Source: a virus. From it: a DNA stretch of 45,983 nt. This document shows positions 10,050-45,983 of this stretch, one piece after another; positions within the stretch are counted from its first letter, which is position 1; the number at the start of each line of letters is the position of its first letter. The DNA lies in IMG/VR virus record IMGVR_UViG_3300044980_000021, positions 1 through 45,983 of that record; one strand, written 5' to 3'. Below the pieces are notes generated by a model. The model did no database searches and was not told where the DNA came from. It worked only from the letters and a program-made list of their open reading frames with translations. Position numbers and translations under genes: made by a program.

Positions 10050-10660
10050 TGGCGCACCTGATTTTTTCCTAACCCCTGACCTGCGGACTCTCCGGTATTT
10101 GGAGCCGTGCCGCTGCCATTTGAAGGCAATAAAGTGAGCTTCGTGGTTCCACTCATCGTAAATGGCCCTCCCTGAGCCACTGTGGCCTCTGAGGCCGGAC
10201 CTCCGGGGTTTTGAGCATACGACCTCACTGAATAGCTATATGGATTTCCTGAGCCGTCCTGCGTGGGCAGCGTGAACGGTTCTGGCGTCCTGCTTGTACC
10301 GTGATCTTTCACAATAGGCTGTCCGAAAGTCGGAGTTCCTGTTGTTGAATAACCAATCTCCGTGAAATATCGAATTCCCCTGGAAACTGGCCCATTATGG
10401 TTAATCGACACGTGCATTTGCTCCCCGCCGACTGACACAGACACCGAATCGGGAGGCTTCGGTGCCGCAATATCTCCCGTAGCCGAAACACCGGCATTCG
10501 CCGCGATTCTGTTGATCGCATCGACAATATCCTGATGAACTTGCGCATGGCGAGGGTCTTTTGATTGAATTTCTGCCTGAAGTCCTCCAATATCAAGCTG
10601 GCCGCTAACGGTAGCCTGATTGGTTCCTTTGGTCGCGTTTGCTTTATTACCGAGTCCCAT
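10046..10660 (-). CDS. Tail-associated protein with Ig/FN3-like C-half, 204 aa
   Basis: ATG 10660 overlaps the TGA of the giant gene (TGATG). The ORF-track start 10684 would overlap it by 25 nt. No catalytic motif recognised. Confidence 0.6.
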   Translation of the reverse strand: MGLGNKANATKGTNQATVSGQLDIGGLQAEIQSKDPRHAQVHQDIVDAINRIAANAGVSATGDIAAPKPPDSVSVSVGGEQMHVSINHNGPVSRGIRYFTEIGYSTTGTPTFGQPIVKDHGTSRTPEPFTLPTQDGSGNPYSYSVRSYAQNPGGPASEATVAQGGPFTMSGTTKLTLLPSNGSGTAPNTGESAGQGLGKNQVRQ

Positions 10661-13600
10661 CAAAACCCTCTCAGCGGAGACCATGCGTCAGCTTGCGCCA
10701 CTAGCGTCATGCGCGAAATATTGAAATAGCACCCAACCCCAAATGTCGATATCTCGACAAAGAGTCTCTGCGCAAATTCATCCAGCGGCCCTTCAATATC
10801 ATTTGCCGCGGGGTCAGACAAAGTTACGCCGCCCGGCACGGAAAACGGGTAAGGAGCCTGCAGAACATTTTGAAAGAACGTGATTGAGAGCGTTCCAGAA
10901 TTGATATCTCCGCTGCCTGAAATCAGAAAATCCCAATATACGTAACGCTTATTGTGAAGTCCGAAGACGGGATTTTCCTTCGCTTTCTTCTGATCGACAA
11001 ACCCATAAGTACAGTACGAAGATGGGAACGGCACACCGTCATCGGCTCCTGCCTGATACGAACCAAGAGAGTAAATCTTGCTCGATCCAATTCCATTGCA
11101 GAACAACATCTCCGAGAATAGTTCGCTGCGCTTGCAGATCGCCATGTACGGCGTTGGAATCGACCAGAGAGAGTACTTCATCCTCAGATCGTGAACGGCA
11201 AGCTGCCCCATGATCGTCACATGCAGCGGCTCTGAAGCCATTAAAGACTCTATGTTACCGATGCCGTCATAGTTGATGTAAAGGATGACATTATTGCCGC
11301 CTGTACCGTCGTTTTCCTCAAAAGACGGGCACCATTGATTCGGGGTAGCCATTGGGCAGGCAATAAAGAACCTATTATTGGCCGTATCGTTTCTGACAAC
11401 AAGACCTTGAGCATTTGACCAGTTGATCGCGGCCCAGATGTCGGGAATGTCCAACTCGATCTGCGTAGGCTCCCCGCCGTTGAAAAGAAACAGGCCGTTC
11501 TGGTTCGCCATGATCGCCCATTTCTTCGAGGCATCCCATGCATTGATTCCGCAAGCTCCCGCGATAGGCGAAACTTGCTTAAAGGGATTCCACGCAGTAG
11601 GCTCCTGATTGGGCGTGTCTGAAATGTACCCCAGAGAACTTTCTTTGAGAACGTAAAACAACCCATTCATCTCAAATCCGCCGTTGGCCGGTTGCGCGTT
11701 CACCGTGGTAGTCGTAGCGTTTCCGGTGTCCTGATCGAAGGATTCAAGATCGTTCTTGTAGCTGATCGTCAAATCGGTAAGATTCGTTGGTGCAAGCGTC
11801 GGATAGACCTCGATGCGGTCAATTTCGATGTCTGCGCCATTAGGCAGATTCTGCGCCCACACTCTCAAAAGCAGTCCAGGAGGAATGCTCGCCAGTGGCG
11901 TAGCGAGCAACACCCCGGAATAGGTTTCCATGCTGGAAGTCATGGAAGACGTTGGAAGAACATAAGACCCGTAGGTCTGCCCGTATCCCGTCGATGAATT
12001 GAAGTCGGTAAGGTCGATAACTAAAGCGCCGCCCGTCGCGCTCGAAGGAGTTCTCACCGTAACTCTGACGGAATAAGCAACCGGCTCCGTGCCTGGATTC
12101 AAGATGGCGACGTTGTTGTAATCCTGATACGCCGACTGCGTAATCATGCCGAGTTGAGTCTTAGTAGAACCGGTATTGTTGTTGATGTAATAGGAATTTC
12201 CGAACACCGGAGAAACCAGAAGCGTTGGTATGCCGATTGGTGCGGTAGCCGCATTGAGGCCCCAGCCTAAGGGCAGGATATTCCCACCGGGATTCGGGTT
12301 ATAGCCTCCATCAAAACTCATGTTGACGAAGTTTGGAACCTTGTTTCTTACCCTGCCCCAAACGGACCTTCCGGCGTACTGCGCGCACCACGCCGAATCG
12401 CCTAATTCTTCGAGCGCGAAAAGGTCGTTACCCTGAATGTCGATTTCTTCCGCGTTTAGTAAAACCGAGTCAGGGAAGGTGAACTTGGCAGTGGTCGTAA
12501 CGTTGTCGTTGATGACTGTCGAAGACGATAGATATGTGACACCGTTAAACACAAACTGCTGCGGAACGGCGATGAAGTAGTAGCTCGCTCCGGGCTGTCC
12601 TTCCTGTCCGGCCTCAGTAAATACGATGGCGCGGGCGATGACATTCGGCGGCCCGATAGGGATATTTGAAACGAGGATGTAATTCGTATTGTCGGCGGTG
12701 TTGAACTGCACCGTTGGCGCCGGAGCGGTGTAATAACCGTTGCGAGTGATGAAAAAGCATGTTCCTTTCCGCGTGCCGGTTCCAACTACCACAGAGGAAG
12801 AACCAACGAGCGTGATGAATCCTCCACCGGAATTTCCATAAATCGGAGAATTGCTTGCGACCTCGCCTAAAGTCAGAGGGCCGGGGTCAATGAGGAATTC
12901 CGTTCCTGAAGTCGTCGCCTGCGCAACTTCTGTTTCGGACGAGAAAGTCTGATTCCCGAATCCGTTGATCGTAAAAGTTCCTGAACTTGTCCCGGTCACC
13001 GAAGCAATGACTGCATCGGTAACGTTGAAAATTCCGTTTCCGTTCAAAGTTCCTGTAACAGTGACAAGCTGACCCACTACCGGAGGGCTTGTCGTAGATC
13101 CAGAAATCTGCCAACTATACGTCGCAGTCCCCGCAGCCATAGAAGTTTGGGAAATAGCGTAAGACCCGCTATTCAAAGCCTCAAGGACTAACCAGGTCTC
13201 ATTCCATGACGCTACAGGATCGCCGGTGATGGTGATCTGGTCGTTAGCCGTAACTCCCGGCAGCGGTAGAGTCGTAGTTACAGTGGCAACGGTCAGTTGG
13301 TATTGCCCCGGCTGCGCATTTGACCCTCCACCGAGATTTGCATAGCTGCTGGATGCCACGTTGTATGTGAAATAGAACCTCTGATCCCCTCCACCCGGAG
13401 GAGTTCCGATGCCAATCGAAGTGACGAGAAACGTTCCATTCGCTACGGGCTGATTCGTTCCAGATACGTATACATAAACCGGGAATTGCTGCTGCTGGAA
13501 ATACTTAACGAGATTAGCGTCTTCGTCGCCCTGATGTGTGAACGCATTGAGATAGTAAACAGTGATGACGGGGCCGGAATTAGTCGATCCCGCACCGGAG

Positions 13601-15783
13601 CTCCAGAGAATATCATCCAACTGCGACTGAAACCCCTGCGCCTGATTCCAGAACGGGAACTGAGTAATTCCGAGAGGCGAGGCGGCAATCGGATAGGTAT
13701 ACTGAGCGGCTGCCGTGGCCGTTGTCGTCCCACTTCCCGTGACAGCCGTTTCCGAAATCTCAAATTGTGTTCCTGAAAGCCCCGTTCCGAGCACATTGAA
13801 AAGCTGATTATTGAGCGGGAAAAGAGGGTCGCTGCTGATCGCAATGATCCGAATGACTTCACCGGCAGTCAAACTGTTGGCCGCGGTCAATGTAAGGATT
13901 CCACCTGAATACGAATAGGCCGTTATCGTTACAGTGGAACCAGCAGAGAGAGTTCCCTGAAATGACGGAGGCGCTCCGGGGCCGACCTGCGATACACGGT
14001 CATTCCACCCGGTTTGACCCGCTGCTGTGCCGATGATTTGCTGTGGAGGATAGTTCCCCTGCAAAAGATCGGAAATCGCAAGATACTGCCTTGAATTGGC
14101 CACAAAAGCAGATGCGTAGCTGTTGACTGGAGGGCCTGTAAAGAGAGGGGTAAGAACGCCTGGATTCGCACTTAGGTTTTCAAGCCAGAAATCACCCTTT
14201 GAATCGAGGGCTACATTGTAGATATTCCCGAAATTATCTTCGTAGGTTCCGATGAAATTGTAGTTTTCCTGCGTAGGAACAAAATAAGCAAGGATGGTCA
14301 CATAGCCCAGAAAAACTGTAGTCCCTGATCCTGAGGCAGTAAACTGCACGCCGAACGAAGTATTATTCAGGTCCGAATAAACCCATGAAGCATTAAACAG
14401 GTTTCCAGTACCTCCAAACCGTATCGGTTGCGTTGAATTTGCGGGCACCTGGATGGGCTGCGGCGATCCTACCGGCACTCCAGCCTTAACCATCTGCGCC
14501 GTGAGCGTGTAGGGCTCTGTAGACGCATTGGTGTTCACTGAAACAACAAATCCCTGCGGAGTAGCCGTGCTTGCAACCGAAAATCCGAACTGAGTAACAC
14601 GCAAGGCATCGGTTGAAGCGTTTCCGGAATAGCTGTAGTAGACGGTTACTACCAGCTTGTTTACGTTGATTGTGCAGGTCGCAGAGGAAGAGCCGAAGAA
14701 ATTCACGATGAGACTGGAAAGGGTTGCTTGCGACCATGAGGAATACCCCCACAGCGACCCATTGCCTCCAGCAGTAAATGTCATTGGGCTAGTAGTCAGA
14801 GTCTCCGGCTGAGTCACGTTGCCAACATTTAGTCCTACCTGAAAACTAGGCTGCGACCCTGAGTAGTCTGCCGTGAATGAAATTCCCAATCCTGTGATCG
14901 AAGCGCCCGAAGGGATGGAAAGACCTGAAATCGCTGCCTGAAGGGTCTGAGCCGTTAACCCTGATCCCCCGGCAACCGTGGCATACCATGAAGTCACCTG
15001 ACCCGTAACATTGGCAAATCCAGTAGGCGAGCAACCCGCAGTAGCTTCGATCTGAAGTTGAATCGTATCAAGGTTTGTTATTCCGGAAATGGCAATGGGA
15101 ATCGTTGCCGAACTACTGGCTCCATAACCTCCAGCCGCAGTCCATGTGGCACCATTGTTTGTCGAATAATTAATCAGGAATGTTGCGCCGCCCTGATTGG
15201 ACGAAATCACCACATTGACATTCACATAAAGCGTGCAGGCTGTAGCGGGTACAGAAGCAAAGCCTGAAAGAGTCGCATAAATCGGAGCGGGAGATGTATT
15301 CGATGCGCTGGCAGAATTAGAGACTGAGCCGCTCTGCTGAGAAGGCGAGTAGTTTGTTCCTCCAGAAGACAATGAAACCGTGGCAAATGAAACGCTTGAA
15401 TCGACATTCTGCGGGTTAGCCCATGCAACACCGCCACCTGAATTCGATCCTGCGGAAGTAGAGGAGGCATTAGAACCGGAAGACACCAGATTGGCGCTCG
15501 AGAAAACCCCCGTATTGGAAAGAACGTTTGCAGGGCTTGACCAGGCTGTTCCGGTGACAGGAATGTCTGCGGCTGCTCCTCCACCATCCGGCCCCGCGCT
15601 TCCACCTTCGTAGGTGAACACGTCTTCAAGACCCTGCCTGGTAAAGGTTGAACCGACCGAGAAGTCTTGGTTTTGATTGCGCGGACTCGCTCCTTCGGGA
15701 AGGTCATGCGGTTGTGCAAGCGTGACCGTTCCCGAAAAGGTTTCGAGCTGTGCCGACATGCGGCCCTGAAGGGTATGCCCCAC
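10660..15783 (-). CDS. Giant tail/fibre structural protein, 1707 aa
   Basis: GTG start 3 nt after the upstream TAG, with AAGGGG SD. Ser/Thr/Gly/Asn-rich beta-type sequence. N-terminal tandem modules begin W-x-[NS]-P-x-N-V. An internal module is shared with the neighbouring 217-aa protein. Confidence 0.75.
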   Translation of the reverse strand: MGHTLQGRMSAQLETFSGTVTLAQPHDLPEGASPRNQNQDFSVGSTFTRQGLEDVFTYEGGSAGPDGGGAAADIPVTGTAWSSPANVLSNTGVFSSANLVSSGSNASSTSAGSNSGGGVAWANPQNVDSSVSFATVSLSSGGTNYSPSQQSGSVSNSASASNTSPAPIYATLSGFASVPATACTLYVNVNVVISSNQGGATFLINYSTNNGATWTAAGGYGASSSATIPIAISGITNLDTIQLQIEATAGCSPTGFANVTGQVTSWYATVAGGSGLTAQTLQAAISGLSIPSGASITGLGISFTADYSGSQPSFQVGLNVGNVTQPETLTTSPMTFTAGGNGSLWGYSSWSQATLSSLIVNFFGSSSATCTINVNKLVVTVYYSYSGNASTDALRVTQFGFSVASTATPQGFVVSVNTNASTEPYTLTAQMVKAGVPVGSPQPIQVPANSTQPIRFGGTGNLFNASWVYSDLNNTSFGVQFTASGSGTTVFLGYVTILAYFVPTQENYNFIGTYEDNFGNIYNVALDSKGDFWLENLSANPGVLTPLFTGPPVNSYASAFVANSRQYLAISDLLQGNYPPQQIIGTAAGQTGWNDRVSQVGPGAPPSFQGTLSAGSTVTITAYSYSGGILTLTAANSLTAGEVIRIIAISSDPLFPLNNQLFNVLGTGLSGTQFEISETAVTGSGTTTATAAAQYTYPIAASPLGITQFPFWNQAQGFQSQLDDILWSSGAGSTNSGPVITVYYLNAFTHQGDEDANLVKYFQQQQFPVYVYVSGTNQPVANGTFLVTSIGIGTPPGGGDQRFYFTYNVASSSYANLGGGSNAQPGQYQLTVATVTTTLPLPGVTANDQITITGDPVASWNETWLVLEALNSGSYAISQTSMAAGTATYSWQISGSTTSPPVVGQLVTVTGTLNGNGIFNVTDAVIASVTGTSSGTFTINGFGNQTFSSETEVAQATTSGTEFLIDPGPLTLGEVASNSPIYGNSGGGFITLVGSSSVVVGTGTRKGTCFFITRNGYYTAPAPTVQFNTADNTNYILVSNIPIGPPNVIARAIVFTEAGQEGQPGASYYFIAVPQQFVFNGVTYLSSSTVINDNVTTTAKFTFPDSVLLNAEEIDIQGNDLFALEELGDSAWCAQYAGRSVWGRVRNKVPNFVNMSFDGGYNPNPGGNILPLGWGLNAATAPIGIPTLLVSPVFGNSYYINNNTGSTKTQLGMITQSAYQDYNNVAILNPGTEPVAYSVRVTVRTPSSATGGALVIDLTDFNSSTGYGQTYGSYVLPTSSMTSSMETYSGVLLATPLASIPPGLLLRVWAQNLPNGADIEIDRIEVYPTLAPTNLTDLTISYKNDLESFDQDTGNATTTTVNAQPANGGFEMNGLFYVLKESSLGYISDTPNQEPTAWNPFKQVSPIAGACGINAWDASKKWAIMANQNGLFLFNGGEPTQIELDIPDIWAAINWSNAQGLVVRNDTANNRFFIACPMATPNQWCPSFEENDGTGGNNVILYINYDGIGNIESLMASEPLHVTIMGQLAVHDLRMKYSLWSIPTPYMAICKRSELFSEMLFCNGIGSSKIYSLGSYQAGADDGVPFPSSYCTYGFVDQKKAKENPVFGLHNKRYVYWDFLISGSGDINSGTLSITFFQNVLQAPYPFSVPGGVTLSDPAANDIEGPLDEFAQRLFVEISTFGVGCYFNISRMTLVAQADAWSPLRGF

Positions 15784-18177: not shown

Positions 18178-18911
18178 TAGTTTGGTCTCCTGAGCTGGTT
18201 TTGGGCCTGGAAACGGCGATTCCTCGCCATCATCGTTACCAGGCCAACGTTGAAGTGCCTTTCCATCGAGCGCATCTTGTCTTCAAGCCATGAAGTTGAG
18301 GCCAGAGACGCCTTGCGCTTGACGCCGTGGTAAATATCGTCTACGCGTTTGCCGAATTCGATATCGTCCTTCTCTTCGCACTCTTTCATGAATCGCATCT
18401 TGCATTCGAGCGACAATTCCAGCGATGCCTTGATGATCGGAACCATCATTTCCACAATTTCCGTCGAAAGCGGGAAGGCTTCGATGTAAAGCTGGCCCTT
18501 GTCGAAGATTTTGGCTACCAGCGGAAGAGCAATCTGGTAGGAACCGTGATACGGATACTCGCCGAGTATCTGAAGTCCTGTTTTTGCGCAGCGATTCTCC
18601 TGATAGAACCATTCTGCCGACTGTGGCTGGATATGCGGCATTTCAATCGACATTCCGGCATCCACCCACTGCATCAGCATCCAGTGCGGCAGGCCATCGC
18701 CCTTGTACACCTCGCGGTAGCCTACGAACATAGTCTCGGAGTCGCCGTCATAGGGAAATTCCCCGCCCTGCCGAGTCGTCTCCGCTTGTGCCCATGCCAG
18801 TTTGAAGCGAGGCTTCCTGTAGCGATTCAATCCGCCGACCTGCGTAATGCGCCTCTGGAAGTTATCGGGCGCATGGAGGCGCTCTGGATGGGCGCTATAT
18901 GCCGACTGCAT
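18177..18911 (-). CDS. Head-module protein, unknown function, 244 aa
   Basis: Start overlaps the 3' end of the GroES-like gene by 17 nt. No motif recognised. Confidence 0.6.
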   Translation of the reverse strand: MQSAYSAHPERLHAPDNFQRRITQVGGLNRYRKPRFKLAWAQAETTRQGGEFPYDGDSETMFVGYREVYKGDGLPHWMLMQWVDAGMSIEMPHIQPQSAEWFYQENRCAKTGLQILGEYPYHGSYQIALPLVAKIFDKGQLYIEAFPLSTEIVEMMVPIIKASLELSLECKMRFMKECEEKDDIEFGKRVDDIYHGVKRKASLASTSWLEDKMRSMERHFNVGLVTMMARNRRFQAQNQLRRPN

Positions 18912-19362
18912 GGCTCACTCCAAGCGCAAAGCTGACTTTTTCGATGAGCTTGAGGTCGAAGACGCTGCAAAGCGTAAACACTTCGCCATCGCAGTCAATG
19001 TCCTCCGTATTGAAAGCAGAGAATGTGACCACATCGCCGGGCTTGACCACATTTACCATCGGAAAGGACTGACCTTCGATGATGTAAAAATCCGCGCAAG
19101 CGACCACAACCCCGCGATTGGCTGACTTCTGCGCCGATTCAGGGATGACAAAATGTGTTCCGCCCCAGGTTGTCTCTTTGGCATTGCGGCGAATCAGAAC
19201 GCGGTCGAAGATTGGAACCGGATCAGAATAAATGCGGTCAACTTCCGCAAGGCTGATTGGCTCAACAAGAGCATCGATCTCGTTTTCAGGCGGTTGTGGC
19301 TCTGCGGACTCATCGGCGGCCTTGGTACGCCGGTCCACTATCTCAAAAGGTTCGTGTCTCAT
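18895..19362 (-). CDS. GroES/Cpn10-like co-chaperonin with ~50-aa acidic N-terminal extension, 155 aa
   Basis: PIFDRVLIRRNAKETTWGGTHFVIPESAQKSANRGVVVA...VVKPGDVVTF...GEVFTLCSVFDLKLIEK aligns by eye with the whole length of bacterial GroES. ATGA overlap with the GIY-YIG gene stop. Confidence 0.7.
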   Translation of the reverse strand: MRHEPFEIVDRRTKAADESAEPQPPENEIDALVEPISLAEVDRIYSDPVPIFDRVLIRRNAKETTWGGTHFVIPESAQKSANRGVVVACADFYIIEGQSFPMVNVVKPGDVVTFSAFNTEDIDCDGEVFTLCSVFDLKLIEKVSFALGVSHAVGI

Positions 19363-19970
19363 TCTGGTCTCCTGTACGGTCCGCGTTTAACGCCTGTGCG
19401 GGTCTGCGCTGATTTCAGTTGCATGGCCGAACCCGATTGCATATCCGGCCTCTTGCGTCCTAGCTTACCATTACGAATTGCTTGCCGGTATTCTTCTGAT
19501 CTTGGCGGCTTAGGTCTTCCCCTCAGAGCTGCTGATTGTTTAGCTATCTGCTCTGGTGCTTTTTTCCTGCCACGATTTCCTGCTGCGATATTAGCGTTCC
19601 ATTCTGGTGGGTTAGGTCCGCGCTTCTTGCCTAGTTTTGCGGCTGCCATCTTTGCTTTTGCTTCTTCGGAATGACTACCACCCTTGAATCTCTTCTCCCC
19701 TCCATCGGTTCGATTCGCTAAGCATCCAGTCCCCCTGTCGATCCTTCCTAAAAGATGGATCTGAAGCATTTCAATCTGTAGGGCATCTTTCTCGCTCAAA
19801 TCCTGAGCGATGAATTCAATTAGCGACTCATCGCTCGGAGGATGTACGTGGTGATCTCTAGACCATGCTCTTTTTCCGCATCCTTTTCCTACGTAAAAAG
19901 CAGTTCCCGATACTCCATATCTCGAATTTGATGAGCGGAGGTAACGATAAACATAGAATTTTTTGTCCAT
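19359..19970 (-). CDS. GIY-YIG homing endonuclease with NUMOD3-type repeats, 203 aa
   Basis: N-terminal FYVYRYLR...AFYVGKGCGKR GIY-YIG motif. Four basic helix repeats follow (SEEAKAKMAAAKLGKK, EWNANIAAGNRGRK, EQIAKQSAALRGRPK, EEYRQAIRNGKLGRKR). Free-standing between the capsid and GroES-like genes. Confidence 0.85.
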   Translation of the reverse strand: MDKKFYVYRYLRSSNSRYGVSGTAFYVGKGCGKRAWSRDHHVHPPSDESLIEFIAQDLSEKDALQIEMLQIHLLGRIDRGTGCLANRTDGGEKRFKGGSHSEEAKAKMAAAKLGKKRGPNPPEWNANIAAGNRGRKKAPEQIAKQSAALRGRPKPPRSEEYRQAIRNGKLGRKRPDMQSGSAMQLKSAQTRTGVKRGPYRRPE

Positions 19971-20053: not shown

Positions 20054-21388
20054 TCAAATTGTAGGCTGAGAGGCACCATACACATAGAGCTGATGACGCG
20101 GTGCACTACAGGCAAGATTGAAACTGCACTCATAGGCGAACTGGTTTGAGGTCAGCCATCCGTTTCCGGAGGGGTCTGGGACTGGCATGGTGGTATTTCC
20201 GCCTCCGAAATCGTACAGTTGCAGCGGGCAGAGTTCCCCGATGTACCAATCCGAGGTCAGAAGCATATCCACGCGGCCCAGCGGCTGAACGTAGGACAGA
20301 TGAACGTCCCTGCCGCCATAGGTGCCTTGGAAATACTTCTTGCTCACATCCGGCACTTTCCCAGTGCTGCCTTCGCTGTTCGACTGCTGCAGGACGATCT
20401 GCTTGTTGTAGTAGTTCGTCTGCGCAACCGCGTAGCTCTGGTCTTCACCGAAAAGGTAGATGCCAGAGTCTTTGGTCTTGTTAGATCCGCCCATTGCCCT
20501 ACCCAACAGAGCCTCGATGCGCGCCGATAGCGAAGCGGTAATGCTGCCGCCGTTCAGGTTGATCGAGGGAGTTGAAATACGGCTGGGATAGGTTGCCCGG
20601 TTGATGCCAGCCTGGATGCCAGTTGTCGCCGAGTTGTTCCACGAGGTTGTGCCGAAAACGCCCTCACCATAAGCGCCGGAAGAGCCGGCAATCATGATGT
20701 AGTCGCCTGCAGCAGTCGCCCCGCCTGTCGAGGGCAGGACAGTAGAGAAGAACAACGTCGAAGTGACCGGATCGTTGATCGAGATGGTGGCATTGCCGCG
20801 AGTGCTTCCACCCTCGGACGGGAAAATCTGTACTACCTGATTGTCCGTGAAGGCCATCGCCCGAACGCCGGTAATGAAGCTGGTCTGATTACCAGTGCCG
20901 GAGTTCGAGGAAACGGTAGCTGTCGAGGGAATCTGCGTGATGGCTCCCGAAGAGTCACCGTACATGATGCCTTCAATGCCTGCCATCGCCGAATCGAGCG
21001 AGTTCTTCAGTTCCTCAGCTTTGAGAGAGATGAGACCGCGCTTCTTGCCGTTTACGGCGAGCTGCGAGAGGTGCGTCATCTCGTTCACGGCATAGTGCCA
21101 AATCGGGGAAAGATTGAAATCATTCCAGATCGACATATTGCCGCGGCCAAGAGCATTGCCGTCGCCGGTTCCCTGCGAGATGTAAGCGCCGCCCTGCACG
21201 CGGAAAGGAACGCGGAAGGATGGGCGGGTGGTTGTGCCTGCTGTCGTCTGGAAGGAGACCGGAACCTTAGTGAAGCGGTCCTGCGCCAGCGCGTACAGCG
21301 TCTTGCTCATGGGGATGAGCGATGGGATTTCGGTGCTAAAGGCTTCGATTTCAACCGCTTCTACGGCTGCTTCTGTGCCGAGTGCCAT
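20054..21388 (-). CDS. Major capsid protein (by position and size), 444 aa
   Basis: Follows the scaffold-like gene. GGAG SD. Size and composition are compatible with an HK97-fold capsid protein carrying an insertion domain. No search was possible. Confidence 0.65.
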   Translation of the reverse strand: MALGTEAAVEAVEIEAFSTEIPSLIPMSKTLYALAQDRFTKVPVSFQTTAGTTTRPSFRVPFRVQGGAYISQGTGDGNALGRGNMSIWNDFNLSPIWHYAVNEMTHLSQLAVNGKKRGLISLKAEELKNSLDSAMAGIEGIMYGDSSGAITQIPSTATVSSNSGTGNQTSFITGVRAMAFTDNQVVQIFPSEGGSTRGNATISINDPVTSTLFFSTVLPSTGGATAAGDYIMIAGSSGAYGEGVFGTTSWNNSATTGIQAGINRATYPSRISTPSINLNGGSITASLSARIEALLGRAMGGSNKTKDSGIYLFGEDQSYAVAQTNYYNKQIVLQQSNSEGSTGKVPDVSKKYFQGTYGGRDVHLSYVQPLGRVDMLLTSDWYIGELCPLQLYDFGGGNTTMPVPDPSGNGWLTSNQFAYECSFNLACSAPRHQLYVYGASQPTI

Positions 21389-21591: not shown

Positions 21592-21735
21592 TCTCGTTCT
21601 GCGTCGAAATGTAGTCTGCTCAATAATCCAATGATCGAGAGCCGCGAAGCCATCGTATATCTTGCCTGCGATCAGCGGCAACGCTTCCCATGCGGCTAAT
21701 CCAAGCACTATTCCCAATGCGATCTTGAAGATCAT
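21589..21735 (-). CDS. Small membrane protein, 48 aa (below ORF-track cut-off)
   Basis: Hand translation gives MIFKIALGIVLGLAAWEALPLIAGKIYDGFAALDHWIIEQTTFRRRTR. ATGA overlap with the scaffold gene stop. One TM helix. Confidence 0.45.
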   Translation of the reverse strand: MIFKIALGIVLGLAAWEALPLIAGKIYDGFAALDHWIIEQTTFRRRTR

Positions 21736-23006
21736 GCGCGGCCTCTTAGATGAGCCCAGCTTACAAACATCCCGTTTTTCAAATACCCCTGCCCCTTGAT
21801 ACGCATTTCCGTGAAATCAGGGCGTGAAGTATCGAGTTGTTCATTGGTCGGGATCGACGATACCTGCAACGGGCCTCCACCTGGAGCGGTCTTAGGCTGT
21901 CCAGGCTTCACCGCTCCGGTTCCAGTGGCAGTTGATTTACCAGACGATCCAAACAGGTTCTTGCATTCCTTCGACACTTCCAGAGCTTTATCCTTGGCGC
22001 GCCGAGAGAATTCCCCTGCCGCGTAAGTCGCTACAGTGTCATGCGTCCTCTGCTTATTGGCAAAGCGAAGGTCAATCTGCTGCTTGTAACCGTTATCGCC
22101 ATTCATTTCCTCAATCACAGCGTTTTCGAGTGCGGTCCTATAGTAAGCGGCCTGCTTTTCGTTCCATCCGTTTGCCTTGACGTACTGATCGACAAGAGAC
22201 TTCATCGGAGCCTGAATGGAATCGTTGACCTTAGTTTGCACCGCAGACCGGAAAATGCCTTCTTCGCGCTGATTGAGTTGCGTTTCGCGCTCTTTCAGTT
22301 TGTCTGTACCCGGAGCAGGCTTGGCAGTGTTTTTCACTGCGTCCGCGTTCTGCATCTGGCCCTTCAGCCAGTTATCCATCGTTGTCAGGCCGGCCTTGAT
22401 TCTCGCGGGATCGGTTTCAGCTAATAGGCCCTGTACGAATTGCGGTATCTGGGCATCTTTCAGCATCTGTACCGCATGCGGTCCTACTGCGGCGCCATAG
22501 GCTTCAGGATTCATCTTCTGCAGGCGTTCAAGATAGTGCGGAGCCAGCGCAGCCGCGCCTTCAGGAAAGTCCTTGAACATCGCGTCCAGCACTTCCGGAT
22601 TGCCTTCTTTTAGCCCGGCATCCTGCATATCGTATGTCTGAAGTCTCTGCGTGGCCTGAGAAATGCCCTCAATCCCGCCAGCGGACTCGATAATGCTTTT
22701 GGCCTCGGCAGCCTTCTGCGGGGTTTCAAACGCGCCCTTCCAGCCTGTAGCCTCGCGGAAATGTGTATCGGCGAGCTGGCGAAGAATCTTCGCATGAGCT
22801 GGATTAGCCGCGGCTAATTGCTTTACCGCATCCCGAATCGACTTTCCGCTCAAATCTTCAGATACTTGCGCCTGTTGAGTTTCTTGATTCCCTGGCTGAA
22901 TTTCCGCGGTTTGCGTTTCCGGATGTTGCGTCTCAACTGATTCAGTTTCGGTTTGCGTCGTGTCCGTTGCTTCCAAGGACGAAAGATCAATCATGTCAGT
23001 TGCCAT
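21732..23006 (-). CDS. Scaffolding protein candidate, 424 aa
   Basis: Acidic Thr/Glu/Gln-rich N-terminus and a long helical, charged body. Lies upstream of the capsid gene. AGGAG SD. Confidence 0.55.
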   Translation of the reverse strand: MATDMIDLSSLEATDTTQTETESVETQHPETQTAEIQPGNQETQQAQVSEDLSGKSIRDAVKQLAAANPAHAKILRQLADTHFREATGWKGAFETPQKAAEAKSIIESAGGIEGISQATQRLQTYDMQDAGLKEGNPEVLDAMFKDFPEGAAALAPHYLERLQKMNPEAYGAAVGPHAVQMLKDAQIPQFVQGLLAETDPARIKAGLTTMDNWLKGQMQNADAVKNTAKPAPGTDKLKERETQLNQREEGIFRSAVQTKVNDSIQAPMKSLVDQYVKANGWNEKQAAYYRTALENAVIEEMNGDNGYKQQIDLRFANKQRTHDTVATYAAGEFSRRAKDKALEVSKECKNLFGSSGKSTATGTGAVKPGQPKTAPGGGPLQVSSIPTNEQLDTSRPDFTEMRIKGQGYLKNGMFVSWAHLRGRA

Positions 23007-23015
23007 TGCGGTCTC

Positions 23016-23243
23016 CTATCGAATCACTGCTATTTTCTTGCCTTCCAAACTCAATCCCAGAATTGATCCATTGCACTCGATCCAGCAGCACGGTTCGGTT
23101 TTACTGCCGCGCTTGGATAAATCCACGACCGTCTTGCTGCTCACAAGAATCGTCACTTCATCCCATTGCGTTTCCGTACTCAAATCGCCATCGTCCACGC
23201 TCCAGATGTGCTGCGCGTCAAAGCGGTTGATGTAAACCCTCAT
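23016..23243 (-). CDS. Small protein, unknown function, 75 aa
   Basis: ATGA overlap with the phosphatase gene stop. Sits between the phosphatase and scaffold genes. Confidence 0.6.
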   Translation of the reverse strand: MRVYINRFDAQHIWSVDDGDLSTETQWDEVTILVSSKTVVDLSKRGSKTEPCCWIECNGSILGLSLEGKKIAVIR

Positions 23244-23848
23244 GATCCACCAAATACAGCTTCTTCAGGCTTTCCGAAGATCGGCTCAACCGTGTGATTT
23301 TTTCCGTTCCAGTAGATCGCGGCAATTCCACCCGGCTTTACCGTCTCACCAAATTCCGGTTCCGTGCGCTCTGCTCCTTCTGTGAAATTGACCAGCGCAA
23401 CAACATTCGAAGTGTGCGCCACAAACAGCGTCAGACCCTCAGTGCGCGCCTTTTTCAAGGCGGCTTCCCAGAAGGCATACTGGCGCTCCTCGAAGTCGTC
23501 CAGAGACTCGCCACCCGGCACGCAAACCTCAGGATTTTCGGCGAACAGTCTCAAGGCATCTTGATTTTCGTTCTTAGGCAGACCGGAGAAGATGCCTAGA
23601 CGCCAAGGCAGCAATCCCCTATGCTGGAAGACCATCAGGCCCTGAGAGCAAATATCCGCAGTAACGAACGCCCTCAGCAGTGGCGAGCAAATTATGTTCT
23701 TGATATCGTATTTCTTCAGCTCTTTAGCGGCGGCATGGGCTTGCTCAATCCCTTCATCGCTCAACGGAACATCGAGCCATGAACGAAAGCATCCGCGCTC
23801 ATTTAGCTCTGTAGAGCCGTGCCTAAGAATCAGTGCGACAGGCTTCAT
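23240..23848 (-). CDS. Histidine phosphatase superfamily (PGAM/SixA-like) protein, 202 aa
   Basis: Motifs LILRHGSTELN, SPLLRAFVTA, PGGESLDDFEER and LFVAHTSNV. ATGA overlaps with the portal gene upstream and the 75-aa gene downstream. Confidence 0.8.
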   Translation of the reverse strand: MKPVALILRHGSTELNERGCFRSWLDVPLSDEGIEQAHAAAKELKKYDIKNIICSPLLRAFVTADICSQGLMVFQHRGLLPWRLGIFSGLPKNENQDALRLFAENPEVCVPGGESLDDFEERQYAFWEAALKKARTEGLTLFVAHTSNVVALVNFTEGAERTEPEFGETVKPGGIAAIYWNGKNHTVEPIFGKPEEAVFGGS

Positions 23849-26328
23849 AGCTTGCGTTTCGTCCTCGTCTTTATTTCCGCATTTGACGTTCTCTGTATCG
23901 TTTCCTGCTCCTGCTCTGTCGGTCCGCCAGCCTGCTCTGGAGCTACTTGTATGCCGGCCTTCGACAAAGCCTGAGATTGCGCGGCACCGACGAGCTTATC
24001 TACCGCAATGTTGATCGAAGTCTTAGGCGGAATCGGCTGCTGATTTTCTGCGGCCAGTTTCGCTGCTACCTGCTTATGTCCCTGCCAATACAGAAAAACA
24101 TTCGTCCACTTCTTCCAGCTATCACCTTGCCCAGGCTTATCCTTCTCAGCCTTGCGCCGCAGGGATCGTCCGTCTGATTCGCCCATCCAGCTAAACACAG
24201 TCGCTGCGATGGTCGCATGGTCTTCTGAATCGTCCTGAGCTACTGTCACGCTGGGAAGGTACTGCGGAGTCTTATGAATCTGCTCCTGTAACTGGCCTAC
24301 CTGCTGCTCTAAAGCCTCGCCCTGCTGAATTTCCGACTCATCTAAAGCAATGCCTGACTCGGTAGCAGTCTGCGCGAGAGACTTGGCCATCTCATGCGTC
24401 TGGCTCATCTGTTCTAGTTGATCGTTTAACTTCTGCCATTCTGGGTTGATAAGCGGCTCGGAATCAAGCAGTCTTTCAATATCCTCGAGCGCTCCGTCTT
24501 CCCAGTTGGCCTCATCGACCGTAATCACGTCCTCCAGCGAAAGAGCCTTCACGATTTCCCGCGTGTTCGACGGGCGCGCCACAACAGCCGCCACTTCCTG
24601 ATTCTGCATCGCCATGTCGAGAACCTGTAGCACCTTGGCTTCACGTTGCGCTCCACTTTCAGGAATTGCGTTGATCGTCTCAGGACGGCATTTGGCGTTG
24701 CCCTTGAGGTTTTCCGGATTGACTGCAATATCACCGTAACCCTCAACCGTATCGCTGATTTCACCCTGCCCGTTCTGAGAGCAACAACGGGCAGCCTGGC
24801 CGATTGCAGTAGCGAACATGACGTTTGCCACTATCCACGCGGCGCCCAGCCTCTCAAGCGCCTGCTGCAGACGAATCTGCGTAGCCCCTACCGTGTTGTC
24901 TGAACCTTCAGCCTCTCCGAATAGGGCAGGCGTGCAGCCGTCAATCGACTGGATAAGCGGGCCGACATACCACTGAAACATCTCAGCCATGCCCTGATGT
25001 AGCTGGGCCTGAGGCATCTGGCTGAATAAATCCGTTATTGGTCTTCCCTCTGGCACGGAAACAGGAATAAAGCGTTTAGGAGATGCCTCAAGTTCGGTCA
25101 GAGCCTCCATGTTGAAAGCCTGATCGTCAACCGCTGTAGCCGCAATTGCGCCTCGTACCGTAATATCCCACAGGTCTGCCCAGATATTGATTCGTTTTTG
25201 AATCGGAATATCCGAGCTACCCAGCGAACGGCGATTCTGGCCGAATCCCCTGCAGAACATGCCCAGCGCCAAGTGATCGTCCATGCTCTCAGTCCACGCA
25301 CAGGTGAACTCTTTTCCGTGCATGATCATGAAAACGCCTTCTGGGAACTCTTTTAGAAGCCACTCGCGCTGAGAATCTGTAATTCGATCATCGAAGTACA
25401 TGCCTGGGCGATACCACTGATAGCCTACCGTTGCTTCCCGTATCCCCGAAGTGCCAGTAATATATTTTCCGACAATTCCGATGCGCGTATTGATTCTGGC
25501 GATACGCTCAAACTCAAGCTCGCCGGCAGTTCCCCATGAGGGCTTGATCTTCGTCCCCATCCACGGATATTTTGCCCTCTCAATTGCATAATCCGACTCC
25601 TCAAAGATCTGAAAATAGCCCATTTCCTTGAGGCAGTCGTTCATCATTGGGCCTTTGGTTTCAAGGACTCCATGCAGCGTAGTAATCTCGCGCCTGCGGA
25701 TATTGCCATCATCGTCAAGGCCGAAACTCTTGTCTGCTACCGTGCGCGTCCAGAAAACGCCCCTGGGATCAGTCCACGCCAGCCCCGCAAGCTCTCTTTG
25801 CTTCGTGATTGAATCGTTAGTTTCATACCATAAGTGCTTGTATTTGTTCGATTCATCAGAGCACGCAACATCAATTGGAGACTTGCTCTTATTGGGCGTG
25901 AAGTTGACCTTGATCTTCCCGCGGCATAAGGCAGAAGTCGAAATATCACCCTGCGCGCTCAGGATATTCGTTGCGTAGAGATTCGCGTCATTGTTCGCGG
26001 CGAGGCCATTTTTGTTCTTGCCGACACCCGCGCCGATAATCTCCCAGCCACCGCCCTGACCGCCATCTAGATACTGGTAGCCGCGATCCATGTGACGCTC
26101 TTCCCAGACCTGAAGCACAGAAAACCGGCGTGCAGCCTCATCTGCCTGAGAGCATTGCTCGGCCATTGTGGTGAAAACCGCTATGAGTGTGGGGTCAACC
26201 TTCTTGATGTCGTCGGGCTTCCAGACTTTCTTCGACGTGATGATAGCGGAGGCTAGTTCGCCGGGCGCGAACTCCTGAGCCTGTGCGGATACGGCTTCAT
26301 CTGTGTTTTCTGCTACATCCTCAGCCAT
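23845..26328 (-). CDS. Portal protein (by position and size), 827 aa
   Basis: Largest head-module ORF, downstream of terL and upstream of scaffold and capsid. Acidic helical C-terminal region. No search was possible. Confidence 0.6.
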   Translation of the reverse strand: MAEDVAENTDEAVSAQAQEFAPGELASAIITSKKVWKPDDIKKVDPTLIAVFTTMAEQCSQADEAARRFSVLQVWEERHMDRGYQYLDGGQGGGWEIIGAGVGKNKNGLAANNDANLYATNILSAQGDISTSALCRGKIKVNFTPNKSKSPIDVACSDESNKYKHLWYETNDSITKQRELAGLAWTDPRGVFWTRTVADKSFGLDDDGNIRRREITTLHGVLETKGPMMNDCLKEMGYFQIFEESDYAIERAKYPWMGTKIKPSWGTAGELEFERIARINTRIGIVGKYITGTSGIREATVGYQWYRPGMYFDDRITDSQREWLLKEFPEGVFMIMHGKEFTCAWTESMDDHLALGMFCRGFGQNRRSLGSSDIPIQKRINIWADLWDITVRGAIAATAVDDQAFNMEALTELEASPKRFIPVSVPEGRPITDLFSQMPQAQLHQGMAEMFQWYVGPLIQSIDGCTPALFGEAEGSDNTVGATQIRLQQALERLGAAWIVANVMFATAIGQAARCCSQNGQGEISDTVEGYGDIAVNPENLKGNAKCRPETINAIPESGAQREAKVLQVLDMAMQNQEVAAVVARPSNTREIVKALSLEDVITVDEANWEDGALEDIERLLDSEPLINPEWQKLNDQLEQMSQTHEMAKSLAQTATESGIALDESEIQQGEALEQQVGQLQEQIHKTPQYLPSVTVAQDDSEDHATIAATVFSWMGESDGRSLRRKAEKDKPGQGDSWKKWTNVFLYWQGHKQVAAKLAAENQQPIPPKTSINIAVDKLVGAAQSQALSKAGIQVAPEQAGGPTEQEQETIQRTSNAEIKTRTKRKL

Positions 26329-27497: not shown

Positions 27498-27789
27498 TCG
27501 GTTCCTCCTCGATTTTGTAGGGGCCTTCAATCGCTTCTGGTTGTTCTGGTGGATTTACTCGGCGCGCTGCTCGAACCGCATCAATGCCAAGCGGCTGGCG
27601 CACAATCTTGGTTTCAACTGGAGGCATGATAACTTTAGGGGCAGGTTTCTTCAGTTCTATCAGTGCTTCCTGCAGCTCATCAATCCTGCGCTGTTTCTGG
27701 GCTACCTGAGCGCGGAGATAGTCAATCTCTTCGGCCAAATGAACGCGCATCGGAAAGAGGATATTCATCAACTCTTTTAGCCACTTCAT
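27478..27789 (-). CDS. Coiled-coil protein, 103 aa
   Basis: The ORF-track start 27966 lies inside terL. ATG 27789 (MKWLKEL...) forms an ATGA overlap with the terL stop. Confidence 0.65.
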   Translation of the reverse strand: MKWLKELMNILFPMRVHLAEEIDYLRAQVAQKQRRIDELQEALIELKKPAPKVIMPPVETKIVRQPLGIDAVRAARRVNPPEQPEAIEGPYKIEEEPNAVQSK

Positions 27790-29393
27790 AAGCGCCCCTT
27801 CCAGCTCGGCGGCAATACCTGCCGCTTCTTCTTTGTGGTTTTGTTCACGTGCCTGAATGCGATCATCATTCGATCCACCGGCTTTGCCGCATCCATCTGC
27901 TCTGAGAATACTTCCTGCTCTGTCTTCTTTCTCGGCAACAGCATGGATTTTAGCAAATACCTGCAACCGTCTCCGCAGTCCTGCTCAATCTTAGCTGCAG
28001 AAAGGTCCGTTTTCAACACATCATCCAAGTTTTTAGGGTCGCGCAGCAGACTTGGTATAGCATTCAGCAACTCGGCACACTCGCTTGAAATCAGTACCGC
28101 GTCATCATACTGAAACCTCTGGCCCTCTTTGTCTACACCCCAACCTTGCCCCTTGGAGGCTTTAAACAAGGCTCCCATCAATCCCCAACCGCCCTTGCGG
28201 TCATTGTCGGCCTTGATGAATCCAGGCATTCCATTCTGCTTTAATCGCTTGTTCTGCTGGCTGCCGATGGAATTAGGATCGTCTGTTACTTCTTCCGGGC
28301 TAAGAAACGCTGTTTTGTGCTTCGGCCTCTCAGTCGGAGGGGTTGAGTCGGTAATGTCCTGAGCGACTTCTACGGCCTCCTTCTCATTGATTATCATCTC
28401 CCGGTAAATGACCGTCACGTGAATCGGCTTGGTAAGCTCCCATCCAAGCATCTCTTTGGCCTCGGAAGGCTTCAACGCCACTCGGAACGCCCAGAACGTA
28501 GCACACCAGTGAGACTTGCCCCAATCCTGCGCAAACCAGTGAACCGACCACGGCTTTCTGAGTGACTCGACTAAAACAGGACCTATCCGCGTTGATTCCA
28601 GATCGAAGCTATTCGCAAAATACGCACCTTCGAGCGAATCCCAATCGCCTTCCCAATCAGCTTTGCGAATGACCTCATCATCGGTCGCAAGCTGGCGAGT
28701 ATAAGGCCCACGCTTCGCCGCATAGTCCTTCCTCTGCTCATCCGTCCAGCGATAGTAGTCGTCAACCGTGTATCCGTCCTGCTTCAGCGCCGTGCGAACC
28801 CATTCCACGTTATCCCACGGATTGAACTTGATATACGTGTATTCCGCAGGGTCTTCGTCCTTGTTGACTTCCTTGAGGTAAAACCATTTGCGCAGCTCTT
28901 GAATCGAAGCGCCACGCATATTGAAGACGAGTACAACTTTCGCCGCGTCGAGCTTCGTTGAACGCGCGGCTTTACGTATCTCTCGTATCTCACGCCCTGA
29001 GAACTGTTCCGCCTGATCGATGATGATGATGTCGTAATTGCCTGACCTGAAAGCCTCAACAACCGAGTCGTAGTTCTCGGCGTACTTGAATTCCATCGTC
29101 GAGCGCCCAATTGTCAGAACGGCCGGCGGAGATGACTTCAGATTCTCAGCAAGCCACGGAAAGTCTCTCCGAATCGCAGAGATGTGGAACGGCACCATCT
29201 GCTTGACCCAGGTTCTCATTACAAGGCAGATCGTAAGCCCTTGAATCTCGTACATCAGCGTGATTGCAGCTCTATCGACCCCAGAAGACTTGGCCGACCC
29301 TCGACCACCGCAAGCACCGATAACTGTTGCGCGATGCTCTTTGATTGTCTTCAGGAGCTTGGACTGTTTGGGCTGGAGAAGTATCTCAGGCAT
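27786..29393 (-). CDS. terL: Terminase large subunit, 535 aa
   Basis: Walker A-like GACGGRGSAKS and Walker B YDIIIIDQAE, with a C-terminal nuclease-like half. Position downstream of terS. Confidence 0.9.
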   Translation of the reverse strand: MPEILLQPKQSKLLKTIKEHRATVIGACGGRGSAKSSGVDRAAITLMYEIQGLTICLVMRTWVKQMVPFHISAIRRDFPWLAENLKSSPPAVLTIGRSTMEFKYAENYDSVVEAFRSGNYDIIIIDQAEQFSGREIREIRKAARSTKLDAAKVVLVFNMRGASIQELRKWFYLKEVNKDEDPAEYTYIKFNPWDNVEWVRTALKQDGYTVDDYYRWTDEQRKDYAAKRGPYTRQLATDDEVIRKADWEGDWDSLEGAYFANSFDLESTRIGPVLVESLRKPWSVHWFAQDWGKSHWCATFWAFRVALKPSEAKEMLGWELTKPIHVTVIYREMIINEKEAVEVAQDITDSTPPTERPKHKTAFLSPEEVTDDPNSIGSQQNKRLKQNGMPGFIKADNDRKGGWGLMGALFKASKGQGWGVDKEGQRFQYDDAVLISSECAELLNAIPSLLRDPKNLDDVLKTDLSAAKIEQDCGDGCRYLLKSMLLPRKKTEQEVFSEQMDAAKPVDRMMIAFRHVNKTTKKKRQVLPPSWKGRL

Positions 29394-29844: not shown

Positions 29845-30270
29845 CTATTCTTCCTTCGACTCGCTGCCAATGTGGCGCACTACCAGCTCAATTGCCCCGC
29901 CATTCTCGCCTGTATGTGCTAGCTTATCGCCGTACTTCTTCGGGGCCAGCTTGGATGCTCTCCACTGATACGCGCTGATCTTAACCTTTGTGCTTTGATA
30001 GTTTTCCTCGTCACACGCCTCAGCGGCTTCGATGATCTTGTCGTCCATCAAATCAGCCTGCATTTCCCTCGCGCGCGCGCACTTGGCCTCAAAATCTTTA
30101 TTGTCTGCCATCCATCTCAACACTGAAGCACGAGACGGAAAACCTTCAGATTGACAGATTTGCCTCATACTCTCGCCTTCTATGAGACGTTCACATATTT
30201 TTTCGGCAATAGATTCTGAGTAGTGCATTAATGGGGATATCCTTTGAAGCCCGTCTTTCCGAGCTGCCAC
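29845..30270 (-). CDS. terS: Terminase small subunit, 141 aa (alternative start ATG 30228)
   Basis: SIAEKICERLIEGESMRQICQSEGFPSRASVLRWMADNKDFEAKCARAREMQADLMDD...WRASKLAPKKYGDK matches the HTH-type small-terminase family seen in many podophages. The ORF-track start is GTG. Confidence 0.7.
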   Translation of the reverse strand: MAARKDGLQRISPLMHYSESIAEKICERLIEGESMRQICQSEGFPSRASVLRWMADNKDFEAKCARAREMQADLMDDKIIEAAEACDEENYQSTKVKISAYQWRASKLAPKKYGDKLAHTGENGGAIELVVRHIGSESKEE

Positions 30271-31775: not shown

Positions 31776-31982
31776 ATGACTTGCGAATTATTGCCGTGTC
31801 CCTGTTGCGCAGGAAATGCACGGTTTGAAACATCTCCGCAAGGGCATTTCAAGGCTGGTGTTTATGTTCACTGCAAGCGCACCAGATGCGGAGTTAGAAC
31901 CAAACTGTGTAGAACAAGTTTTGAAGCTGCCGAAGTGTGGAACAAAAGAATTGAATCAACCGCCGCGCCGTCTCCACGGTAG
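31776..31982 (+). CDS. Lar-family restriction-alleviation-like zinc-ribbon protein, 68 aa
   Basis: Start moved to ATG 31776. ELLPCPCCAGNARFE...VHCKRTRCGVRT...FEAAEVWNKR matches the Lar pattern (CPxC...CxxC...A..WNxR). Confidence 0.6.
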   Translation: MTCELLPCPCCAGNARFETSPQGHFKAGVYVHCKRTRCGVRTKLCRTSFEAAEVWNKRIESTAAPSPR

Positions 31983-32016
31983 CGCAGAGAAAACAATAAT
32001 TTTGAGGAGAGATAAG

Positions 32017-32563
<547 letters not shown>

Positions 32564-32571
<8 letters not shown>

Positions 32572-43814: not shown

Positions 43815-44252
43815 ATGACGGAAGAAAACGAAGTTGATTTGAAACCTTGCCCATTTTGCGGAAGCGATGACATTGACGCAGAAGGATGGCGTAATAGCGA
43901 AGGTATTACAGGTCCGTCTTGCAATCAATGCGGAGCGTCAGCCGGGGGAGTGTCAACCACATCTGAGGAAAATATTCTCGCTTGGAATATACGCGCAGCA
44001 GAGGTCCGCATAGCCTTACTTGAGGGCGTCGATAAGGACCAAGAGCAGCGCCTCAAAGACAGCGAACTAGCCCTCCAGCATTCCCGCCACCGCGAAGAGC
44101 AGTTCATTGCCGCTCTCGAACAGATGAAGATGACGCTGGAAATCCCCGTATCCTGGGCAGAGAACACACAGACCGCGCAGGACATATTCAACTTCCACAA
44201 GACCTCAGGGATGTATCTGTATGCACAGATGATGAAGGGAGATGGGCAGTGA
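43815..44252 (+). CDS. Lar-like zinc-ribbon N-domain fused to a coiled-coil C-domain, 145 aa
   Basis: GGGAGGGAAG SD. LKPCPFCGSDDIDAEG...CNQCGASAGG...ENILAWNIR fits the Lar pattern, followed by a helical EQRLKDSELALQHSRHREEQFIAALEQMK region. Confidence 0.6.
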   Translation: MTEENEVDLKPCPFCGSDDIDAEGWRNSEGITGPSCNQCGASAGGVSTTSEENILAWNIRAAEVRIALLEGVDKDQEQRLKDSELALQHSRHREEQFIAALEQMKMTLEIPVSWAENTQTAQDIFNFHKTSGMYLYAQMMKGDGQ

Positions 44253-45920: not shown

Positions 45921-45983
45921 TATCGCCTCGCAATCAGGGTCGCGGTCAGGTGCAACGCTGCCATCTGAGGCGCTGTCTGGGTA
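45857..45983. repeat. Terminal direct repeat copy 2 (identical to 1..127)
   Basis: Base-for-base identity with 1..127. Confidence 0.95.

Follow-up and report, generated by a model that had tools for sequence, protein, structure and literature searches.

The viral sequence analysed here (IMG/VR record IMGVR_UViG_3300044980_000021, positions 1 to 45,983; the entire 45,983-nt stretch is referred to below as the window) encodes on its minus strand a protein of 202 amino acids (aa) that belongs to branch 1 of the histidine phosphatase superfamily (23240..23848, ATG start; Pfam PF00300) and lies directly downstream of the portal gene. The histidine phosphatase motifs listed in the initial annotation, ALILRHGSTELN, SPLLRAFVTA, PGGESLDDFEER and LFVAHTSNV, are all present in this open reading frame (ORF), and the profile search confirms the assignment: residues 6–164 match His_Phos_1 with an E-value of 1.6e-30 and 106.7 bits, against a cut-off of 21.7, and the Arg-His-Arg-His core is not disrupted. 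The gene is also coupled to its neighbours as proposed. Its start overlaps the portal stop codon as ATGA (tcat on the plus strand at 23845–23848), and its own stop codon overlaps the start of a 75-aa ORF in the same way (tcat at 23240–23243). The protein further matches PHROG 12933 (E-value 2.6e-18), a family annotated as 'unknown function', and no peptidase family of Pfam or PHROGs. Searches of PDB sequences with phmmer and hmmsearch returned dPGM, PspA, PhoE and CobC; a profile of 40 family members gave near-full-length alignments with E-values of 4e-17 to 4e-15, and from these hidden Markov model (HMM) alignments to solved structures we infer that the protein probably adopts the phosphatase fold.

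At the cluster level, the phosphatase has at least 192 relatives. The top 118 of them are 50–73% identical to it and 200–210 aa long, and many are encoded on contigs of 40–48 kb. No close relative was found in deposited phage genomes by tblastn with three family members: in 50,697 deposited phage records, the window phosphatase and two relatives found only matches of 25–36% identity, to unannotated fragments or bacterial GpmB-like genes. A megablast search of the same records with the 10-kb head region and a tblastn search with the portal gave no match.

The adjacent portal gene (23845..26328, minus strand) encodes a protein of 827 aa of the podophage SU10/T7/P22 type. Neither this protein nor the major capsid protein of the window matches any entry in Pfam, PHROGs, NCBIfam or the PDB sequences, the last of which were also searched with profiles. 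Homologues of both proteins were collected, their structures were then predicted with AlphaFold2, and the models were used for fold searches of the PDB with Foldseek. The portal model (predicted local distance difference test score, pLDDT, 79.3) is most similar to the SU10 portal (7z44, E-value 4.4e-14), with further matches to the portals of Pan3, Pa223, N4, KHP30, T7, PaP3, P22 and Sf6.

We identified 18 viral contigs that encode a portal 58–79% identical to the one in the window. In all 16 contigs that extend past the portal gene, a phosphatase gene starts 9–26 nt after it, and a 17th contig carries the cut start of such a gene, so that the phosphatase follows the portal in 17 of 17 cases. 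Downstream of the phosphatase come the genes for the scaffold, the capsid protein and a GroES-like protein, and two more conserved genes. The same block is present in a prophage (L034) at the end of a 153,835-nt ENA contig, beside an IS1595 transposase, and in one related contig (L025) a ParE/RHH toxin–antitoxin pair lies just upstream of the portal gene. In a sister clade with a portal 34% identical to that of the window, the phosphatase gene is found immediately downstream of the portal gene (L036) or two genes upstream of it (L023). The phosphatase is a core syntenic gene of the head module of its clade, not a sporadic moron.

In some distant homologues of the window portal, the phosphatase is part of the portal polypeptide itself. 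P0343 (1009 aa; 27% identity to the window portal, E-value 1e-53) carries a His_Phos_1 domain: in the BLASTP alignment it matches residues 20–206 of the window portal and again from residue ~208 onward, and these two segments flank an insert (residues 232–421) that is 29% identical to residues 4–191 of the window phosphatase (E-value 2e-14). P0493 is laid out in the same way, with the catalytic set intact, and P0342 has a degenerate copy of the phosphatase inserted in the portal. In our model of the window portal, the insertion point corresponds to a loop between strands 189–198 and 212–219; since this loop is N-terminal to the stem helix (residues 371–393), the model places the insertion in the wing domain. 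The loop (residues ~199–211, window positions ~25696–25734, minus strand) is an insertion hot spot among relatives, and in P0341, P0323 and P0330 it contains acidic low-complexity inserts of 60–90 aa. Since the wing of all solved portals lies inside the capsid, 12 copies of an inserted phosphatase domain would be expected in the interior of the head. The P0343 contigs encode, in this order, terminase, the portal with the insert, proteins of 56 and 419 aa, a 68-aa protein on the opposite strand and a 439-aa protein, and no separate phosphatase gene was detected on the contigs that code for the wing-inserted P0343 and P0493.

Fusions of other kinds were also found. A profile search of 1.84 billion representatives yielded 94 proteins at an E-value of 1e-30 or better. 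They include fusions that Pfam confirms: P0455 consists of a Phage_portal domain (PF04860, E-value 5e-96) and a C-terminal His_Phos_1 domain, P0454 of Phage_portal, Phage_Mu_F and His_Phos_1 domains, and P0484 of Phage_Mu_F and His_Phos_1 domains. The contig of P0455 (L026) contains an HK97-type module that comprises Terminase_4, TerL, the portal–phosphatase fusion, Peptidase_S78 and Phage_capsid. The phosphatase domain has joined portals of more than one family, on several independent occasions. One further candidate, P0119, which joins a portal C-terminus to a phosphatase, was discarded as a frameshift or assembly artefact, as its joining segment is unrelated to both partners and its phosphatase part is truncated.

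Additional contexts of the phosphatase were sampled one protein at a time, and all of them proved to be modules for packaging, the head or the virion. The gene for P0359 directly follows an SU10_portal gene, which matches portal PHROGs as well (L028), and that for P0437 directly follows TerL (L033). In L032, the P0399 gene is found 2.3 kb past a gene for a major head protein. In L030, such a gene lies upstream of the P0372 gene, which itself is flanked by an SU10_adaptor gene and by a gene for an 881-aa protein weakly similar to internal virion proteins.

What all the phosphatase architectures have in common is a physical association with the portal vertex, and the physical tie to the head that the initial annotation had suggested is supported by the domains inserted in, or fused to, the portal and MuF proteins of other phages. 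We lean, at somewhat better than even chances, towards the view that the product of the window gene belongs to a phage-specific subfamily, is probably active as an enzyme and works in physical association with the portal vertex of the head. The best reading of the sequence comparisons is that it represents the free-standing form of a portal-associated virion phosphatase. The earlier proposal of a packaged cargo enzyme is substantially strengthened, though not proven.

Several members of the subfamily have unusual architectures. About 20 of the phage phosphatase representatives carry a Cys-rich module of ~80–90 aa (GPFHCEDCIH...GCCRYV), without a Pfam match, that may be a zinc-binding targeting or regulatory domain. 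It is mostly N-terminal, as in P0359 (residues 1–85; L028:8001–8867); in P0349 it is inserted at residues ~140–215 and is followed by a weakly EncFtn-like stretch (E-value 3e-4). P0412 (349 aa) combines the phosphatase domain with a Sigma-70 region 4 domain (E-value 1e-16), an architecture that departs from the portal theme.

Among proteins with an assigned function, those most similar to the window phosphatase in NCBIfam are metabolic enzymes. All 19 NCBIfam equivalogs that match it do so below their own cut-offs: the best is ribazole_cobC, with 81.4 bits against a cut-off of 162.9, others being dPGM and PspA, and the SixA family TIGR00249 reaches only 22.8 bits against a cut-off of 74.5. These similarities to metabolic phosphatases, the annotation of homologues as 'broad specificity phosphatase PhoE' by their sources, and the presence of a single domain with no docking module would all fit an unpackaged late cytoplasmic enzyme akin to CobC, PGM or PhoE. 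Its gene, auxiliary to metabolism or signalling, would serve to condition the cell during infection and be a mere passenger of the late operon beside the portal gene. However, no equivalog cut-off is reached, and no known substrate can be assigned to the protein. Moreover, fusions of the domain to portal or MuF proteins recur, unrelated phages have it in their virion modules, and within its clade it is a core gene with conserved synteny; we regard this explanation as unlikely.

The active site of the phosphatase is well conserved. Residues R9, H10, G11, N16, R22, R59 and H145 are invariant across the 40 family members (50–73% identity), and the core R9-H10-R59-H145 aligns with the catalytic residues of PhoE, PspA and dPGM in HMM alignments. 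This Arg-His-Arg-His core, together with Asn, corresponds to the catalytic set listed for the superfamily (PMC12051542). The initial annotation had also treated GGES as a catalytic motif, a reading that we reject: the alignments put the position of the proton donor at Pro81, and GGES is the common structural motif, not the acid. Opposite GLLPWRLGIFSG of the phosphatase, PhoE has LREIHLGDWEG, PspA IIEIDHGMWSG and dPGM LNERHYG. Among 143 representatives, position 81 is occupied by Pro in 80, Ala in 21, Ser in 14, Thr in 8, Gly in 5, Cys in 1, Asp in 1 and Glu in 13. Glu is found there only in the 13 proteins of ~400 aa, which mostly have Gln in place of Arg22 and are cellular two-domain types. 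We excluded these Glu81 and Gln22 proteins from the phage subfamily as ordinary cellular relatives, along with P0369 (tRNA-synthetase-like, with several histidine phosphatase domains) and P0410 (triple dPGM).

The C-terminal end of the protein is conserved as well. Its last 13 codons (window positions 23240–23281) encode a tail, IFGKPEEAVFGGS, for which the subfamily consensus is (V/I)FGxxExAxFGGS; 29 of the 40 clade members end with FGGS, and Ser is the very last residue in 71 of 103 subfamily representatives. The tail is kept whatever portal type adjoins the phosphatase gene. P0455, in which the phosphatase is fused to the C-terminus of the portal, has it too; the wing-inserted forms lack it. 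The tail might close over the active site as a lid, the role of the C-terminal tail in dPGM, or serve as a docking peptide.

Several observations count against an active enzyme associated with the portal. The proton-donor Glu of the better-known family members (E83 of PhoE, E89 of dPGM) faces the invariant Pro81 of the phosphatase in the HMM alignments. His145 is absent in ~10 of 130 subfamily representatives and has also been lost in the L023 copy and in P0455, and the insert of P0342 has RHD in place of RHG and lacks the second Arg. Three contigs with related portals (L024, L038 and L039) have no phosphatase gene downstream of the portal, so the linkage is not universal, and the window phosphatase itself has only the His_Phos_1 domain, with no MuF or other recognisable docking domain detected by Pfam. 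Finally, the portal stays in the capsid, so that the wing-inserted domain of P0343 and P0493 cannot be ejected, and ejection is therefore not common to all architectures. Proton donors differ among the families of the superfamily (PMC12051542), so the absence of the Glu does not exclude membership, and the phosphatase may still be active. The degenerate active sites of some relatives leave room, as far as the sequences go, for a partly non-catalytic role in those lineages.

Such a role would be structural: at the portal vertex, the protein might nucleate, size or stabilise the head, or act on assembly proteins in the producing cell, with catalysis secondary or dispensable and nothing ejected. 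The insertions in the wing loop of P0343, P0493 and P0342, which fix the domain in the head, agree with this explanation, as do the degraded sites of the P0342 insert, the L023 copy, P0455 and the representatives that lack His145, and the position of the window gene between portal and scaffold. Nevertheless, the window clade and most of the subfamily strictly preserve the Arg-His-Arg-His set, a sign that the chemistry is under selection. In addition, the MuF-linked forms match the architecture of effectors, and many related portals work without a phosphatase domain. A purely structural or assembly function therefore appears to us quite improbable, and we retain a portal-associated, probably active phosphatase as the preferred reading.

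In the remainder of the head module, the small terminase subunit (29845..30270, minus strand) is Sf6-like (Pfam Sf6_terminase PF20901, E-value 8.9e-36), and the module of prophage L034 is headed by the same family. The 535-aa large terminase subunit (27786..29393, minus strand) has a weak match to PHROG 3717 (E-value 6e-6) and is kept upstream of the portal gene in related loci at 60–76% identity. Downstream of the phosphatase, the 75-aa ORF (23016..23243, minus strand) has no match in Pfam, PHROGs, NCBIfam or PADLOC, and PADLOC found none for the phosphatase either. As tblastn recovered no counterpart of the ORF in any of the 18 related loci, we rejected it as an immunity or partner gene. It is followed by the gene for a putative scaffolding protein of 424 aa (21732..23006, minus strand), so named by its position between portal and capsid; this protein has no family match in Pfam, PHROGs or NCBIfam. 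Its gene keeps its place in every related locus, but its sequence diverges more than that of any other head gene (37–57% identity). The 444-aa major capsid protein (20054..21388, minus strand) has the HK97 fold: its AlphaFold2 model (pLDDT 76.6, predicted template modelling score 0.75) is most similar to the capsid protein of cyanophage A-1(L) (7f38, E-value 3.3e-11), with further matches to those of SU10, Pa223, PhiM1, P-SCSP1u and HK97 (1ohg). Of the three neighbouring head genes named in the initial annotation, portal and capsid are thus confirmed by structure prediction and fold search, whereas scaffold is a positional assignment.

Just downstream of the capsid gene is a gene for a GroES/Cpn10-like co-chaperonin (18895..19362, minus strand; Pfam Cpn10, E-value 2.1e-11). 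Its position after the capsid gene is shared by related loci and by prophage L034, and by analogy with T4 gp31 its product may help the capsid protein to fold. In the window, the capsid and co-chaperonin genes are separated by a 203-aa ORF (19359–19970, minus strand) that combines a GIY-YIG-like N-terminus with a NUMOD3 motif. None of the 18 related loci has this ORF, which therefore looks like a mobile homing endonuclease gene; three related phages (L019, L023 and L025) have Endonuclease_7 or LAGLIDADG genes at similar spots.

This head module is of the podophage type. The initial annotation had placed the phosphatase in the prohead-protease slot of an HK97-type module; on this framing, it would take the place of the maturation protease and functionally replace it. 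The gene does lie between portal and scaffold/capsid, and no peptidase family, prohead maturation types such as S78/U35, S14/ClpP-like, S49 and S80 included, was found in a Pfam scan of 36 ORFs or in a PHROG scan of 16 of these, which agrees with the absence claimed in that annotation; many of the ORFs have no match of any kind, however, and absence is not proven. The portal and capsid proteins are, however, of the SU10/T7/P22 type and the small terminase of the Sf6 type. In modules of the P22/T7 type, the gene order is portal, scaffold, coat, and assembly needs no maturation protease, so that there is no protease slot to be filled. Furthermore, the phosphatase fold has no peptidase chemistry, and in L026 a portal-fused phosphatase coexists with Peptidase_S78, which indicates an addition at the portal, not a substitute for the protease. 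We consider replacement of the protease to be scarcely credible.

The two ends of the window share an exact direct repeat of 127 nt (1–127 = 45857–45983). This terminal overlap is the signature of a circularly closed assembly, as stated in the initial annotation, with a genome of ~45,856 bp (~45.86 kb). The homologue-bearing contigs are named by their sources Terracidiphilus, Pseudacidobacterium and Acidobacteriaceae, so the host is probably an acidobacterium, and the presence of the same head block in the prophage of the 154-kb contig means that the phage is probably temperate. The window also codes for ERF and YqaJ recombination genes and, in the early/accessory region, for an Imm5_like putative immunity protein (31816–32571, plus strand; E-value 5e-8) and a Lar restriction-alleviation protein (43815–44252, plus strand; E-value 9e-9), both candidates for roles in inter-element conflict. 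Two very large ORFs on the minus strand, of 1707 aa (10660–15783) and 1169 aa (1463–4972), lack Pfam and PHROG matches. Their size and position make them candidates for tail or internal virion proteins of this podophage-like genome, and the corresponding place in prophage L034 is occupied by an ORF of at least 1806 aa.

The genomic arrangement suggests how a portal-associated phosphatase could work. It would be translated together with the portal through the ATGA overlap, enter the procapsid by binding to the portal or the portal-proximal interior, and become a minor internal virion protein, similar to the portal-bound proteins of the SPP1 gp7/MuF type and the internal proteins of podophages. 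In its free-standing form, it would then leave with the DNA and, as infection begins, dephosphorylate a host molecule. What the sequences show is the family membership, the conserved catalytic core, the missing Glu, the gene linkage and the domain fusions; incorporation into the virion, ejection and the type of substrate are inferred. Ejection is plausible for the free and MuF-linked forms and impossible for the wing-inserted one, which makes action inside the head or at the assembly stage a live alternative. In the reaction itself, His10 would accept the phosphoryl group, held by Arg9, Arg59, His145 and Asn16. Because the Glu proton donor is absent, either substrates with good leaving groups (such as phosphohistidine or phosphoramidate, acyl phosphates or anhydrides) would be favoured or the acid would have to be supplied from elsewhere, possibly by the conserved C-terminal tail. 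The basic pocket of R9, R22, R59, H76, R77 and H145 and the missing acid are only hints to the substrate.

More speculatively, there might exist a widespread, hitherto undescribed class of virion-borne histidine-phosphatase effectors that dock on the portal or form part of it. Those in free-standing or MuF-linked form would be released with the DNA and erase a phosphorylated host signal early in infection, and the loss of the Glu would be an adaptation to P–N or otherwise labile substrates. Candidate targets would include a phosphohistidine/phosphoaspartate relay, a kinase-based abortive-infection signal or a phosphorylated nucleotide messenger. We put this forward as a tentative idea that may well be wrong. 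Conservation of the phosphatase as a core gene in a clade of soil phages, probably of Acidobacteriota, and its repeated fusion to portals point to a phosphorylated host target that would matter at DNA entry or during head assembly. The insertion of an enzyme into the wing loop is a natural case relevant to portal structure and to the engineering of capsid cargo, and the portal-linked phosphatase is conserved and recurrent enough to merit experiments.

Compared with its cellular relatives PhoE (1h2e), PspA (4ij5), CobC and dPGM, the window phosphatase shares the RHG motif, the second Arg, the second His, Asn16 and the GES motif but has in addition the invariant Arg22, a QHRG motif and the conserved tail that ends in Ser. 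It also differs from PhoE and dPGM in having Pro81 where they have Glu. The phosphohistidine phosphatase SixA is, like the window protein, a small single-domain member of the superfamily; it is said to do without the canonical Glu as proton donor and acts on P–N bonds, which would fit, by analogy, the missing general acid of the window phosphatase. However, the similarity to SixA is weak, and the window protein keeps two insertions that SixA does not have.

Among virion proteins, the T7 core and P22 ejection proteins offer one comparison: the window phage has a podophage-type portal and capsid, and the phosphatase gene of L030 adjoins that of the protein weakly similar to internal virion proteins. 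In contrast, there is no sequence relationship between these proteins and the phosphatase, and they form channels or have lytic domains; none of them is known, from the literature searched or otherwise, to be a phosphatase.

Another parallel is found in the portal-bound minor head proteins of the MuF/SPP1 gp7 type and in effectors fused to MuF or portal, such as MuF polymorphic toxins and 'polyvalent protein' effectors. The muf genes directly follow portal genes, and SPP1 gp7 is a portal-binding protein of the capsid (PMC5576092); enzymatic domains fused to MuF or portal proteins have been read as packaged and injected effectors (PMC5512222). Neither paper mentions a histidine phosphatase or PGAM domain, and the literature searched contained nothing relevant on a protein of the histidine phosphatase or phosphoglycerate mutase family in a phage or portal context. 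Like muf, the phosphatase gene of the window is immediately downstream of the portal gene, and homologous domains occur at the C-terminus of MuF (P0484) and portal–MuF (P0454) proteins and in the portals P0455, P0343 and P0493. It is from such an architecture that the two papers infer packaging and delivery. In contrast to these effectors, the window phosphatase has neither a MuF nor a portal domain in its own polypeptide, and so, although it would work like them, is not a member by architecture; it is not followed by a conserved immunity-like gene, and insertion in the portal wing loop differs from the C-terminal effector layout. Loading into the head through a tie to the portal or to MuF has so far been described for toxins, nucleases, ADP-ribosyltransferases, alarmone synthetases and 2H phosphoesterases. 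With a histidine phosphatase, phosphoryl removal would join this set as a new chemistry.

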